Source: Escherichia coli
GTDB taxonomy: Bacteria > Pseudomonadota > Gammaproteobacteria > Enterobacterales > Enterobacteriaceae
Strand: one strand, 5' to 3'
DNA: 64,000 nucleotides
Assembly (NCBI RefSeq): GCF_011045215.1
Contig: NZ_CP049201.1
In this document: positions 8,667 to 59,294 of the stretch, piece by piece
Numbering within the stretch: the stretch's first letter is position 1
How the letters are laid out: each line of letters starts with the position of its first letter
Made by a program: the position numbers and the translations under genes
The notes under the pieces: generated by a model
What the model was told of the DNA's origin: nothing
Seen by the model: the letters and a program-made list of their open reading frames with translations, nothing else
Databases searched by the model: none

Positions 8667-8742
<76 letters not shown>

Positions 8743-20768: not shown

Positions 20769-22070
<1,302 letters not shown>

Positions 22071-22124
22071 TTCTGGTACGCCTGGCAGATATTTTGCCTG
22101 CCGGGCTAACAGTGTGATACATTG

Positions 22125-22181
22125 CTGTGTCGGTTAAGCCATTACGCTATCCGACACAGTGTTAAATCCTCGCTTTTTTCC
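22125..22181 (+). terminator. Stem-loop plus T-tract downstream of purA (candidate terminator)
   Basis: 9-bp inverted repeat CTGTGTCGG ... CCGACACAG with a large loop, followed by CGCTTTTTTCC at 22171-22181. Confidence 0.4.
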
Positions 22182-22274
22182 TTCCCCGAACTGAAATAAA
22201 TTAGCGACACAGCTTGTGGCTGGTTTATCATCAATATAAATGTATTTTTTCCCGATTTCCCTTTTGAGGTTGAT

Positions 22275-22700
22275 GTGCAGTTAACGAGTTTCACTGATTA
22301 CGGATTACGTGCGCTGATCTACATGGCGTCATTGCCAGAAGGGCGGATGACCAGTATTTCTGAAGTGACTGACGTCTACGGCGTCTCCCGTAATCATATG
22401 GTCAAAATAATCAATCAACTTAGTCGTGCCGGCTACGTGACTGCTGTTCGTGGAAAAAATGGCGGCATTCGCCTGGGTAAACCGGCGAGTGCGATACGTA
22501 TTGGTGATGTGGTGCGCGAGCTGGAGCCCTTATCGCTGGTGAATTGCAGCAGTGAGTTTTGCCACATTACACCTGCCTGTAGGTTGAAACAGGCACTTTC
22601 TAAGGCCGTGCAAAGTTTTCTTACGGAACTGGATAACTACACGCTTGCCGATTTGGTTGAAGAGAATCAACCGCTTTATAAATTATTGCTGGTGGAGTGA
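22275..22700 (+). CDS. nsrR: Nitric-oxide-sensing transcriptional repressor NsrR (Rrf2 family)
   Basis: 141-aa ORF from a GTG start; N-terminal HTH and C-terminal Cys ligands ([12 protein letters not shown]) for the Fe-S cluster. Confidence 0.93.
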
Positions 22701-22738
22701 CGAAAATCTTCATCAGAGATGACAACGGAGGAACCGAG

Positions 22739-25180
22739 ATGTCACAAGATCCTTTCCAGGAACGCGAAGCTGAAAAATACGCGAATCCCATCCCTAGTCG
22801 GGAATTTATCCTCGAACATTTAACCAAACGTGAAAAACCGGCCAGCCGTGATGAGCTGGCGGTAGAACTGCACATTGAAGGCGAAGAGCAGCTTGAAGGC
22901 CTGCGTCGCCGCCTGCGCGCGATGGAGCGCGATGGTCAACTGGTCTTCACTCGTCGTCAGTGCTATGCGCTGCCGGAACGCCTCGACCTGGTGAAAGGTA
23001 CCGTTATTGGCCACCGTGATGGCTACGGCTTTCTGCGGGTTGAAGGGCGTAAAGATGATTTGTATCTCTCCAGCGAGCAGATGAAAACCTGCATTCATGG
23101 CGATCAGGTGCTGGCTCAGCCGCTGGGTGCTGACCGTAAAGGTCGTCGTGAAGCGCGTATTGTCCGCGTACTGGTGCCAAAAACCAGCCAGATTGTTGGT
23201 CGCTACTTTACCGAAGCGGGCGTCGGCTTTGTGGTTCCTGACGACAGCCGTCTGAGCTTCGATATCTTAATCCCGCCCGATCAGATCATGGGCGCGCGGA
23301 TGGGCTTTGTGGTCGTAGTCGAACTGACTCAGCGTCCGACTCGCCGCACCAAAGCGGTGGGTAAAATCGTCGAAGTCCTTGGCGATAATATGGGCACCGG
23401 CATGGCGGTTGATATCGCTCTGCGTACCCATGAAATTCCGTACATCTGGCCGCAGGCTGTTGAGCAACAGGTTGCCGGGCTGAAAGAAGAAGTGCCGGAA
23501 GAAGCAAAAGCGGGCCGTGTTGATCTGCGCGATTTACCGCTGGTCACCATTGATGGCGAAGACGCCCGTGATTTTGACGATGCAGTTTACTGCGAGAAAA
23601 AACGCGGCGGCGGCTGGCGTTTATGGGTCGCGATTGCTGACGTCAGCTACTATGTGCGTCCGCCAACGCCGCTGGACAGAGAAGCGCGTAACCGTGGCAC
23701 GTCGGTGTACTTCCCTTCGCAGGTTATCCCGATGCTGCCGGAAGTGCTCTCTAACGGCCTGTGTTCGCTCAACCCGCAGGTAGACCGCCTGTGTATGGTG
23801 TGCGAGATGACGGTTTCGTCGAAAGGCCGCCTGACTGGCTACAAATTCTACGAAGCGGTGATGAGCTCTCACGCGCGTCTGACCTACACCAAAGTCTGGC
23901 ATATTCTGCAGGGCGATCAGGATCTGCGCGAGCAGTACGCCCCGCTGGTTAAGCATCTCGAAGAGTTGCATAACCTCTATAAAGTGCTGGATAAAGCCCG
24001 TGAAGAACGCGGCGGGATCTCATTTGAGAGCGAAGAAGCGAAGTTCATTTTCAACGCTGAACGCCGTATTGAACGTATCGAACAGACTCAGCGTAACGAC
24101 GCACACAAGTTAATTGAAGAGTGCATGATTCTGGCGAATATCTCGGCGGCGCGTTTCGTTGAGAAAGCGAAAGAACCGGCACTGTTCCGTATTCACGACA
24201 AGCCGAGCACCGAAGCGATTACCTCTTTCCGTTCAGTGCTGGCGGAGCTGGGGCTGGAACTGCCGGGCGGTAACAAGCCGGAACCGCGTGACTACGCGGA
24301 GCTGCTGGAGTCGGTTGCCGATCGTCCTGATGCAGAAATGCTGCAAACCATGCTGCTGCGCTCGATGAAACAGGCGATTTACGATCCAGAAAACCGTGGT
24401 CACTTTGGCCTGGCATTGCAGTCCTATGCGCACTTTACTTCGCCGATTCGTCGTTATCCAGACCTGACGCTGCACCGCGCCATTAAATATCTGCTGGCGA
24501 AAGAGCAGGGGCATCAGGGTAACACCACTGAAACCGGCGGCTACCATTATTCGATGGAAGAGATGCTGCAACTGGGTCAGCACTGTTCGATGGCAGAACG
24601 TCGTGCCGACGAAGCAACGCGCGATGTGGCTGACTGGCTGAAGTGTGACTTCATGCTCGACCAGGTAGGTAACGTCTTTAAAGGCGTAATTTCCAGCGTC
24701 ACTGGCTTTGGCTTCTTCGTCCGTCTGGACGACTTGTTCATTGATGGTCTGGTCCATGTCTCTTCGCTGGACAATGACTACTATCGCTTTGACCAGGTAG
24801 GGCAACGCCTGATGGGTGAATCCAGCGGCCAGACTTATCGCCTGGGCGATCGCGTGGAAGTTCGCGTCGAAGCGGTTAATATGGACGAGCGCAAAATCGA
24901 CTTTAGCCTGATCTCCAGCGAACGCGCACCGCGCAACGTCGGTAAAACGGCGCGCGAGAAAGCGAAAAAAGGCGATGCAGGTAAAAAAGGCGGCAAGCGT
25001 CGTCAGGTCGGTAAAAAGGTAAACTTTGAGCCAGACAGCGCCTTCCGCGGTGAGAAAAAAACGAAGCCGAAAGCAGCGAAGAAAGACGCGAGAAAAGCGA
25101 AAAAGCCATCGGCGAAAACGCAGAAAATAGCTGCAGCGACCAAAGCGAAGCGTGCGGCGAAGAAAAAAGTGGCAGAGTGA
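22739..25180 (+). CDS. rnr: Ribonuclease R (3'-5' exoribonuclease, RNB family)
   Basis: 813 aa from [19 protein letters not shown]; cold-shock and RNB domains, S1 domain, lysine-rich basic C-terminal tail. Confidence 0.95.
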
Positions 25181-25238
25181 TCATTGCCCTCTTCAAACAG
25201 AAGAGGGTTAGATTGCTGACAAAATGCGCTTTGTTCAT

Positions 25239-25337
25239 GCCGGATGCGGCGTGAACGCCTTATCCGGCCTACATAATCACGCAAATTCAATATATTGCAG
25301 GGATCATGTAGACCGGATAAACGTAGTGCATCAGGCA
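25239..25337. repeat. REP/BIME element (one canonical REP plus a degenerate inverted copy)
   Basis: GCCGGATGCGGCGTGAACGCCTTATCCGGCCTACA at 25239-25273 is a canonical REP; a degenerate inverted partner lies at about 25306-25337. Confidence 0.7.
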
Positions 25338-25360
25338 AAACGTAAACAACGAGTACATTA

Positions 25361-26092
25361 ATGAGCGAAATGATTTACGGCATCCACGCAGTGCAGGCCC
25401 TGCTGGAGCGCGCCCCTGAACGTTTTCAGGAAGTCTTTATTTTAAAAGGCCGTGAAGATAAACGTCTGTTACCGCTGATTCACGCCCTTGAGTCTCAGGG
25501 CGTGGTTATCCAGTTGGCAAACCGCCAATATCTCGACGAGAAAAGCGACGGTGCCGTGCATCAGGGCATTATCGCCCGCGTGAAGCCAGGACGTCAGTAT
25601 CAGGAAAACGATCTGCCGGATCTGATCGCTTCGCTCGATCAACCGTTCCTGCTGATCCTCGACGGTGTAACCGATCCGCACAACCTCGGCGCGTGCCTGC
25701 GTAGCGCGGACGCTGCTGGCGTTCACGCGGTGATTGTGCCGAAAGATCGCTCCGCACAGCTCAACGCCACGGCGAAAAAAGTAGCCTGCGGCGCGGCAGA
25801 AAGCGTTCCACTGATTCGGGTGACTAACCTTGCGCGCACCATGCGTATGTTGCAGGAAGAGAATATCTGGATCGTCGGTACGGCAGGTGAGGCGGATCAT
25901 ACGCTTTATCAAAGCAAAATGACCGGACGCCTGGCGCTGGTGATGGGCGCGGAAGGTGAAGGTATGCGTCGCCTGACCCGTGAACATTGCGATGAGTTGA
26001 TCAGCATCCCAATGGCAGGAAGTGTTTCTTCCCTGAACGTTTCGGTTGCAACCGGAATTTGCTTATTTGAAGCGGTGCGTCAGCGCAGCTAG
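25361..26092 (+). CDS. rlmB: 23S rRNA (guanosine2251-2'-O)-methyltransferase RlmB
   Basis: 243-aa ORF, SpoU/TrmH family motifs. Confidence 0.93.
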
Positions 26093-26107
26093 TTCCTCTG
26101 AATTATG

Positions 26108-26139
26108 AAAAGCCATCCAGATTTGGATGGCTTTTTTTT
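26108..26139 (+). terminator. Intrinsic terminator after rlmB
   Basis: Stem AAAGCCATCCA ... TGGATGGCTTT followed by an 8-T tract. Confidence 0.85.
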
Positions 26140-26218
26140 GTCTATAGCTGGTAAGATAATTACGTACTGCAAATATTCATTTTATTAATATTTAAACTAA
26201 ATCTATATGGAATAATAT

Positions 26219-26620
26219 ATGACATGGAATCCGTTGGCGCTGGCGACGGCGCTGCAAACTGTACCTGAACAAAATATTGATGTAACAAATAGCGATAACG
26301 CATTAATTATTAAAATGAATGATTATGGCGATTTGCAAATCAATATTCTTTTTACTTCCCGCCAAATGATTATCGAAACCTTTATTTGTCCGGTAAGTAG
26401 TATCAGCAATCCAGATGAATTTAATACCTTCTTATTAAGAAATCAGAAGATGATGCCGTTGTCATCGGTAGGAATCTCCAGCGTGCAACAGGAAGAGTAT
26501 TACATTGTTTTCGGGGCGTTATCGCTTAAATCTTCTCTTGAAGATATCCTGCTTGAGATAACCTCGCTGGTAGATAACGCATTGGATCTGGCTGAAATTA
26601 CAGAAGAATATTCACACTAA
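26219..26620 (+). CDS. yjfI: Uncharacterised protein YjfI (DUF2170)
   Basis: 133-aa ORF, first gene of the yjfIJKLMC cluster. Confidence 0.85.
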   Translation: MTWNPLALATALQTVPEQNIDVTNSDNALIIKMNDYGDLQINILFTSRQMIIETFICPVSSISNPDEFNTFLLRNQKMMPLSSVGISSVQQEEYYIVFGALSLKSSLEDILLEITSLVDNALDLAEITEEYSH

Positions 26621-26638
26621 TTACAAGGACGGGTATTT

Positions 26639-27337
26639 ATGGGAATTTTAAAAAGTTTATTCACGCTGGGGAAATCGTTTATCTCCCAGGCGGAAGAGTC
26701 CATTGAAGAAACCCAGGGCGTGCGCATGCTGGAACAGCATATTCGTGACGCTAAAGCTGAACTCGATAAAGCCGGAAAATCTCGCGTCGATCTGCTGGCG
26801 CGGGTGAAATTAAGTCACGATAAGCTGAAAGATTTACGTGAGCGCAAAGCCAGTCTGGAAGCCCGTGCGCTGGAAGCGTTAAGCAAGAACGTTAATCCGT
26901 CGTTGATTAACGAAGTTGCTGAAGAAATCGCGCGCCTTGAGAATCTCATTACCGCTGAAGAGCAAGTGTTGTCGAATCTGGAAGTCTCCCGTGATGGCGT
27001 GGAAAAAGCAGTTGCAGCGACAGCGCAGCGTATCGCTCAGTTTGAGCAGCAAATGGAAGTCGTTAAAGCCACTGAAGCCATGCAGCGTGCACAACAGGCT
27101 GTAACGACTTCTACCGTTGGCGCATCTTCCAGCGTTTCGACAGCAGCAGAATCCTTAAAACGCCTGCAAACGCGTCAGGCCGAACGTCAGGCTCGCCTGG
27201 ATGCTGCCGCACAGTTAGAAAAAGTCGCAGACGGTCGCGACCTTGACGAAAAGCTGGCGGAAGCCGGAATTGGCGGTAGCAATAAAAGTAGCGCCCAGGA
27301 TGTATTAGCAAGACTGCAACGCCAACAGGGCGAGTAA
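26639..27337 (+). CDS. yjfJ: PspA/IM30-family protein YjfJ
   Basis: 232-aa coiled-coil-rich ORF with N-terminal amphipathic segment; recognised as a PspA paralogue. Confidence 0.88.
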   Translation: MGILKSLFTLGKSFISQAEESIEETQGVRMLEQHIRDAKAELDKAGKSRVDLLARVKLSHDKLKDLRERKASLEARALEALSKNVNPSLINEVAEEIARLENLITAEEQVLSNLEVSRDGVEKAVAATAQRIAQFEQQMEVVKATEAMQRAQQAVTTSTVGASSSVSTAAESLKRLQTRQAERQARLDAAAQLEKVADGRDLDEKLAEAGIGGSNKSSAQDVLARLQRQQGE

Positions 27338-40876: not shown

Positions 40877-41184
40877 ACATACCTCCTCGACGGCTGACTT
40901 TGTGTGCTCTCCTCTGTGATGATCTTCTGATTTAATTTTAATCAATGATAAAGAAGTTGATGGTGACCATTTCTGATGCAGTTGTTCAAAAAAACACCAT
41001 GATGAAGTGTGATGAACTTCAAATCAGCGTGTTAGTCCACTTTGGTGAAAGATGAGATTTATTTGTCGGCTGGCCTTGAGTTTAGCGGGGTATGTCAGTA
41101 CTATAACGCGTCATTTTTCAGCCGACCTTTAACACGTTCCTTGCCTCCCCGGGATTCGGCTGACCCAGACAGGAGGCTGAATAA

Positions 41185-41598
<414 letters not shown>

Positions 41599-54385: not shown

Positions 54386-54574
54386 CAGGGACATCCTTTT
54401 ATCATCGGGAATACGAAAGAAAAGGGAGAATAAACGTCTTACTTATAGAACAGTGAAGAATGCCACAATTTTACGCTTTGAAAATGATGACACTATCACA
54501 GTTGGCGCATTCATTAACGATAGGGTATAAGTAAAACAATAAGTTAACACCGCTCACAGAGACGAGGTGGAGAA

Positions 54575-59018: not shown

Positions 59019-59194
59019 ATCTTATCCGACCTTTCAGGCCAGATCCTCGGAAGGGGAAGTTGATTAATTTGTGTGAAATACACATTGAAAGCCGATTCGA
59101 AGAAAGTGAACCGGCATTTTCAGTGGCTAGTATAGCGTAAGGTACTGTAAAGTCGCCAGAGGGTTAAAATTCAGACTGCTGATAAATGCAATAC

Positions 59195-59294
59195 TGCCTG
59201 ATGCGCTATGCCGATCAGGCCTACGCAGTCCTTGCAATATATTGAATTTGGACGATTTTGTAGGCCTGGTAAGGCGTTTACGCCGCATCCGGCA
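59195..59294. repeat. BIME: two REP elements in inverted orientation
   Basis: TGCCTGATGCGCTATGCCGATCAGGCCTACG (59195-59225) and TGTAGGCCTGGTAAGGCGTTTACGCCGCATCCGGCA (59259-59294). Confidence 0.75.

Follow-up and report, generated by a model that had tools for sequence, protein, structure and literature searches.

RNase R of Escherichia coli carries a C-terminal extension which, under the names of K-rich, K/R-rich or basic domain, sets the enzyme apart from RNase II (PMC3949413, PMC12320835, PMC8136821, PMC12345225). This tail is required for the enrichment of RNase R on ribosomes rescued by tmRNA-SmpB, which leads to degradation of the non-stop mRNA. A protein cut back to residue 750 is unaffected, one cut back to residue 735 or 723 is defective, residues 751-813 thus being dispensable for tmRNA-linked decay; the paired alanine substitutions E740A/K741A and K749A/K750A are also defective (PMC3949413). 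In SAXS the tail behaves as a flexible domain touching the catalytic core (PMC3949413). SmpB is bound by S1 together with the K/R-rich region, and acetylation of K544 is thought to free the tail from the RNB domain, with binding of tmRNA-SmpB and degradation by HslUV and Lon as the consequences; recruitment of Lon/HslUV via tmRNA-SmpB makes RNase R unstable in exponential growth (PMC12320835).

Further roles have been ascribed to the same region. A Walker A motif (GKT, residues 730-737, in the K/R-rich region) and a Walker B motif (VVPDD, residues 164-169, in CSD2) are reported to support an ATP-dependent helicase activity, and both motifs are missing from Helicobacter and Campylobacter (PMC5818665, PMC8136821). 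Polyphosphate is bound by S1 and the basic domain (residues 731-813) through lysines; growth and expression phenotypes are independent of this binding, and K-to-R mutants that have lost it grow normally (PMC12345225). In the 30S degradation complexes of B. subtilis no density was seen for the tail, which may be an adaptation, e.g., to trans-translation (PMC12320835).

The tail considered here is encoded by the rnr gene within a 64-kb stretch of E. coli DNA, referred to below as the window. The reading frame is uninterrupted on the + strand from 22697 to 25180; a mechanical ORF listing begins it at a GTG at 22697. In the annotation translation starts from the ATG at 22739, and the protein then has 813 amino acids, the same number as K-12 b4179. 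The TGA stop codon occupies bases 25178-25180. The gene and its 3' portion are composed as follows.

22739..25180, + strand: rnr coding sequence (RNase R, 813 amino acids plus the TGA stop), from Pfam, NCBIfam and comparison with K-12 b4179
24659..24910, + strand: S1 (RNA-binding) domain, residues 641-724, the folded domain nearest to the tail (PF00575, E = 8.6e-19)
24914..25177, + strand: the whole basic tail after S1, residues 726-813 (K-rich or basic domain; NF008648 profile positions 725-813)

The protein is RNase R by its NCBIfam equivalog matches, its domain order and its genomic position. With NF008648, an RNase R equivalog, the score is 1789.2 bits (curated cut-off, 982), and the match spans residues 1-812 and so takes in the tail; with TIGR02063, a second RNase R equivalog, it is 962.1 bits (cut-off 597.85). 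Pfam places HTH_12 at residues 23-83, OB_RNB at 87-144, CSD2 at 164-238, RNB at 260-587, and S1 at 641-724, i.e., the order HTH-CSD1-CSD2-RNB-S1 expected of RNase R. The crystal structure of E. coli RNase R, 5XGU, aligns with residues 87-725 (E = 0) with two mismatches in the printed alignment; it ends at residue 725, so the tail was evidently omitted from the crystallised construct. The gene order nsrR-rnr-rlmB is annotated in all 12 of the genome matches listed and is the same in K-12, whose MG1655 counterpart is rnr (b4179, NP_418600.4, 'RNase R'). Since only one of the 813 residues differs from the characterised enzyme, the protein would be expected to act as a 3'-5' exoribonuclease on structured RNA.

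We consider it nearly certain that the segment 24914-25177 encodes the K-rich (basic) domain at the C terminus of E. coli RNase R, which is flexible and strongly cationic and is joined to S1. It directly follows S1, is lysine-rich and strongly net positive, the properties by which the basic domain is defined. Searched alone against NF008648 it scores 95.7 bits at profile positions 725-813; with Pfam no family was matched in the tail, either in the full protein or with the tail searched alone. The original prediction had located the tail at 24940-25180, where it does lie, but base 24940 still belongs to the V734 codon, of which it is the third position, and the first full codon begins at 24941. 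The start also has to be moved upstream, as the Pfam S1 domain ends at residue 724 and the extension after S1 runs from S726 (nucleotide 24914), nine residues before the start first proposed. The statement that a basic tail is known in RNase R agrees with the K-rich, K/R-rich or basic domain of the literature (PMC3949413, PMC12320835, PMC8136821, PMC12345225), and the check suggested along with it, alignment to characterised E. coli RNase R, gave 100% identity of the tail protein to that of K-12 MG1655. The tail is an ordinary feature of the enzyme, already known for this exact sequence.

The composition of the tail, which was determined here directly, as were the identity, the frame, the predicted flexibility and the pattern of conservation, is extreme for the protein. 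The 88 residues 726-813 comprise 25 lysines and 8 arginines (28% K, 37.5% K+R) and have a net charge of +25. Within residues 735-813 (79 amino acids; 24941-25177, + strand) there are 25 K (31.6%), 16 A (20.3%), 7 G (8.9%) and 6 R (7.6%), so that the dominance of K, A, R and G asserted for the last roughly 80 residues holds, these four amounting to 68% as against 28% in residues 1-725; both strings quoted in support of it are present in the translation of 24941-25180. The net charge of this segment is +24, compared with -16 for residues 1-725. No 79-residue stretch within residues 1-725 contains more than 7 lysines, the binomial probability of 25 lysines at the lysine frequency of the body of the protein is 3e-15, and among the 79 frames in the window that are open from stop to stop over 150 amino acids or more the segment is the richest in lysine, the runner-up reaching 11 lysines per 79-residue stretch. 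Residues 735-813 are also the 79-residue stretch of minimum entropy in RNase R (3.12 bits, mean 3.90). The description of the tail as low-complexity is correct in this respect, yet it has to be qualified by the presence of conserved sequence islands within Enterobacterales, described below.

A purine-rich DNA with several A5-A7 runs and short imperfect direct repeats is what might be encountered if the lysine-rich stretch were an artefact, i.e., a frameshift, a misassembled 3' end or the chance read-through of a DNA tandem repeat. The probability of this is negligible. Of the 5426 complete E. coli genomes, 5425 match the 2.8-kb stretch around the tail (best match, strain A30, 99.8%), and in all 5425 the tail DNA itself is 95-100% identical and annotated as rnr; the other two + frames hold two and five stops across the tail, and the longest A run is of 7. 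Slippage is associated with A runs of roughly 9 or more. The tail is thus, as had been claimed, neither a repeat nor a frameshifted ORF: the tandem repeat matches are marginal only, and stops interrupt the other + frames.

Three kinds of repeat or slippage element were considered as candidates in their own right and rejected. TRF reports two marginal tandem repeat matches of about 2 copies in 24700-25400, scoring 39 and 31, one in the S1 coding region upstream and the other in the tail. Dispersed repeats are limited to imperfect pairs of 13-19 nt, which reflect the AAR/GCN codon bias. As for slippery poly-A, the share of AAA among lysine codons is 72% in the tail, below the 81% found over the remainder of the gene.

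Beyond the stop codon the spacer separating rnr from rlmB contains two structured elements.

25186..25208, + strand: 9-bp GC-rich hairpin, GCCCTCTTC-AAACA-GAAGAGGGT, just past the stop codon and with no T-run after it, from folding
25232..25320, no strand assigned: REP-type palindromes of the rnr-rlmB spacer, outside the tail, from inverted repeats and sub-threshold matches to Rfam naRNA4 and ES036

A consensus scan called no terminator after rnr, the hairpin included. The fold z-score of 25175-25345 is -6.8, and an Rfam search over 22000-27000 yielded nothing within the tail and, past the stop, REP-related matches below threshold only. The REP repeats account for the about 40 match places per genome obtained in the E. 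coli genome search.

Two ORFs of 111 amino acids each, 24903..25238 and 25003..25338, are found on the opposite strand, and across the tail no stop interrupts two of the three frames of that strand, as would be the case if a separate gene overlapped the 3' end of rnr. The openness of these frames is a consequence of the AAR/GCN-rich sense codons: the antisense products are F/S/L/A/R-rich mirror translations of the K/A-rich sense frame. Neither ORF has a Pfam match at E <= 1, both are unannotated in K-12 and strain A30, both extend into the REP-containing intergenic spacer, and the substitution pattern fits the + frame; there is thus practically no chance that an antisense gene is responsible for the features of this region. 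The stretch can thus be taken as plain rnr coding sequence, with no need to invoke a repeat, a frameshift or an overlapping gene.

The internal organisation of the tail was examined in an alignment of 97 distinct RNase R C-terminal sequences from Enterobacterales-level relatives, and in an Enterobacterales alignment of 36 sequences; among the aligned relatives are Salmonella, Klebsiella, Raoultella, Cronobacter, Pantoea, Serratia, Rahnella, and Yersinia. The Enterobacterales alignment also served to build an AlphaFold2 model covering residues 640-813. In the Enterobacterales alignment four conserved islands are distinguished in the tail, at residues 726-744, R754-R755, 762-770, and 786-809, and the following elements can be delimited.

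24926..24949, + strand: Walker A-like P-loop APRNVGKT, residues 730-737, the sole [AG]x4GK[TS] match in the protein
24941..24988, + strand: segment for recruitment to tmRNA-rescued ribosomes, residues 735-750, identical to K-12, its function being taken from PMC3949413
24971..24997, + strand: variable basic spacer 1, residues 745-753, with low conservation, length differences and pLDDT <50
25022..25048, + strand: conserved non-basic island NFEPDSAFR, residues 762-770, with about 74-82% identity in the 97 Enterobacterales sequences
25049..25099, + strand: variable basic spacer 2, residues about 771-787, the least conserved, with indels and pLDDT <50
25094..25165, + strand: distal conserved island, residues 786-809, kept in E. 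coli as well as in Yersinia, Serratia and Pantoea

Across the Enterobacterales, R729, R732, G735, K736, T737, R739, K743, R754, R755, F763, E764, P765, A768, F769, and R770 are invariant or nearly so. All of the 36 sequences have R729, R732, G735, K736, and T737, and in the same alignment F763, E764, P765, A768, F769, and R770 are nearly invariant; G735, K736, and T737 are 96-98% conserved in the 97. [quoted passage not shown] All four residues of the functional alanine pairs are present, E740/K741 being encoded by 24956-24961 and K749/K750 by 24983-24988. Spacer 1 is longer by up to about 30 residues in Yersinia.

In the AlphaFold2 model the pLDDT is 79-92 for S1 and 41-65 for the tail, and it falls below 50 exactly at residues 745-753 and 771-787. 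Helices are predicted at residues 736-744, 765-768, and 792-812, the last with a pLDDT of about 55-65, and the islands of conservation coincide with the predicted elements. The tail is accordingly predicted to be flexible or disordered, in agreement with the published SAXS data and disorder predictions, and in the model it takes the form of conserved elements with some helical propensity, joined by basic spacers predicted to be disordered.

Among E. coli strains the tail varies in two ways. UTI89 differs from the present tail by seven synonymous and two non-synonymous changes in the rnr frame; one of its substitutions, T775P, falls in spacer 2. The second type of variation is a deletion: the 81-nt segment 25083-25163 is missing from 48 (about 0.9%) of the 5425 E. 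coli genomes with the tail. A pair of direct repeats is found at its borders.

25073..25166, + strand: 13-nt direct repeat pair, GCAGCGAAGAAAG at 25073-25085 and GCGGCGAAGAAAA at 25154-25166, 81 nt apart, from a repeat search

In the one genome of this kind examined, OkiPb01689, rnr has lost 27 codons, cleanly and in frame, between GCAGCGAAGAAAG and GCGGCGAAGAAAA; its product, WP_000076318.1, has 786 amino acids and lacks approximately residues 780-806, i.e., most of the distal island. The low-complexity DNA of the tail is thus prone to repeat-mediated length change. As the distal segment is missing in 48 of 5425 genomes, most of the distal island is dispensable for viability, and the loss of the 27 residues is consistent with the published dispensability of residues 751-813 in trans-translation.

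Outside the Enterobacterales the picture is different in sequence and similar in composition. In a diverse set consisting of the best 150 representatives at 50% identity clustering, the end of S1 was mapped in 144, and in these the extension after S1 has a median length of 31 amino acids, with extremes of 0 and 516; in 40 of the 144 (about 28%) it is of 10 residues or fewer. The original prediction, which treated the tail as a feature of RNase R, is therefore right in that such tails are common, but they are not universal. A net positive charge is found in 101 of the 103 tails of more than 10 amino acids, whose median K+R fraction is 0.36; lysine predominates in 71 and arginine in 26. The NFEPDSAFR motif was found in none of 149 diverse representatives, and the 103 tails have neither NFEP nor TKAKRA. 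GK[TS] lies no more than 25 residues from the end of S1 in 9 of 143 sequences, and the full [AG]x4GK[TS] is present in 1 of 143, so that a helicase-motif role would be lineage-confined at best. For mesophiles a figure of 88% has been published (relayed in PMC5818665). Judging from these comparisons, a basic tail is common, not universal, in RNase R and is kept in composition rather than in sequence, and the specific islands are confined to Enterobacterales-level relatives.

Such wide variation in length and sequence, with over a quarter of the homologues essentially tail-less, would be expected of a neutral, compositionally drifting low-complexity appendage, in which charge only, or nothing, is selected and which has no sequence-specific role. 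The natural 27-residue in-frame deletion allele of E. coli, the dispensability of residues 751-813 for decay linked to trans-translation (PMC3949413) and the normal growth of K-to-R mutants without polyphosphate binding (PMC12345225) are also in line with neutrality. However, a drifting appendage should have neither the invariant and nearly invariant positions nor the conserved distal helix seen within Enterobacterales; the substitutions within E. coli are mainly synonymous, and alanines at E740/K741 and K749/K750 cause defined defects (PMC3949413). We regard neutrality of the tail as improbable.

The preferred reading is that of a functional, composite tail. It would act as a cationic, mostly disordered electrostatic tether, in which the proximal conserved element (residues 730-750) would make specific contacts on tmRNA-SmpB-rescued ribosomes and provide the reported P-loop. 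The short conserved helix-prone elements (residues 736-744, 762-770, and 792-812) probably make specific contacts, and the variable lysine-rich spacers probably give reach and a non-specific affinity for polyanions such as RNA, rRNA, tmRNA, and polyphosphate. By folding back onto the RNB core the tail may gate SmpB-dependent proteolysis.

Beyond residues 735-750 we infer roles for individual islands as well. In the RNase R literature covered, no function was found for NFEPDSAFR or for the distal tail 751-813. It is possible, though doubtful, that NFEPDSAFR and the basic helix at about residues 792-812 are short linear motifs recognised by some partner that has yet to be described, in which case the deletion allele would be a partial loss-of-function in the stability or targeting of RNase R. 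Candidate partners for the distal motifs include a protease adaptor, a ribosomal protein and the RNB core around K544.

The tail ties RNase R to ribosome rescue and to the control of its own stability, a connection already established for this exact sequence. The additions made here are modest and are of interest to RNase R specialists only: a map of islands and spacers for the Enterobacterales, the narrow lineage distribution of the Walker A-like loop, and a deletion allele of 27 codons generated between repeats.

Compared with the known systems, the tail resembles the more distant ones in general properties only. The polyphosphate-binding region of YihI and other lysine-rich tails are cationic and disordered and bind polyphosphate and RNA via lysines (PMC12345225); they are unrelated in sequence to the RNase R tail, and the likeness is one of mechanism, with no shared family. 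RNase II (Rnb), Rrp44/Dis3, and Dis3L2 have the CSD-CSD-RNB-S1 core in common with RNase R. The alignment with RNase II (2id0) stops at residue 720 of the query and residue 638 of the 644 of the chain, so that in RNase II no basic extension follows S1; the N-terminal HTH is missing from it as well (PMC3949413). Other bacterial RNase R proteins, e.g., that of B. subtilis (PDB 8CDU), have a K/R-rich tail in the same position after S1 and of the same basic character, but with no sequence similarity beyond composition, and the Enterobacterales islands, the GKT loop included, are missing from them. The closest system is RNase R of K-12 (Rnr/VacB, b4179, NP_418600.4), whose basic domain is counted from about residue 723 or 731 to 813 and which has the same tail sequence, the same nsrR-rnr-rlmB context, the same domain order and the same length of 813 amino acids. 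The two coding sequences differ by 15 nt, one of the changes being a synonymous one in the tail, and the sole amino-acid change, S309 in K-12 and P309 here, lies outside the tail.

The lysine-rich tail of RNase R (residues 726–813, following the S1 domain) has lost part of its length by natural deletion in some E. coli genomes, and it carries two short motifs of note. The features of the tail and of the spacer between rnr and the downstream gene, rlmB, are as follows, in window coordinates.

24926-24949, Walker A-like loop APRNVGKT, residues 730-737
25022-25048, non-basic motif NFEPDSAFR within the lysine-rich tail, residues 762-770
25073-25166, site in the distal tail of a natural deletion of 81 nt (27 codons) that keeps the reading frame, flanked by two 13-nt direct repeats; corresponds to 601-789 of the locus L002 from strain OkiPb01689 (NZ_AP042540.1)
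25186-25320, rnr-rlmB spacer with a hairpin, then REP-type palindromes

Of the 5425 complete E. coli genomes having the tail, 48 lack the 81-nt segment, and the deletion junction was verified in one strain, whose Rnr is 786 aa long (WP_000076318.1).

Within Enterobacterales the GKT of the APRNVGKT loop is invariant. Among 143 diverse RNase R representatives, chosen by clustering at 50% identity, GK[TS] lies close to the S1 end in only nine, and the full Walker A-like motif is present in only one. These counts are in some tension with the 88% of mesophiles that PMC5818665 relays for the Walker A motif of RNase R. NFEPDSAFR shows about 80% conservation across Enterobacterales; it was not found in the diverse RNase R proteins, and the published RNase R work surveyed assigns it no function.

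Downstream of the rnr stop codon lies a 9-bp GC-rich hairpin lacking a T-run, followed by the REP-type palindromes, which gave sub-threshold Rfam matches to naRNA4 and ES036. Compared with shuffled sequence, the spacer forms a much more stable fold (z = -6.8), and its REP copies account for the approximately 40 matches per genome obtained in the initial BLAST search. At other sites the window yields Rfam matches whose scores exceed the gathering score, to the RpsF leader (41121-41205), ES239 sRNA (54386-54508), STnc450 (59080-59137), and ES036 (59217-59259); they are unrelated to the RNase R tail.

The annotated rnr start is the ATG at 22739; a mechanical ORF call begins 14 codons further upstream, at a GTG (22697-22738), overlapping the end of nsrR.

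The window contains a single tRNA-Gly(GCC) gene (8667-8742), whereas the closest strain, A30, has three tandem tRNA-Gly copies annotated between orn and queG, which suggests copy-number variation in this array. The only amino-acid difference from K-12 RNase R is at codon 309 (23663-23665), proline here and serine in K-12; the construct of the E. coli RNase R crystal structure 5XGU likewise has S309, and carries V at the position of A131 of the window protein.
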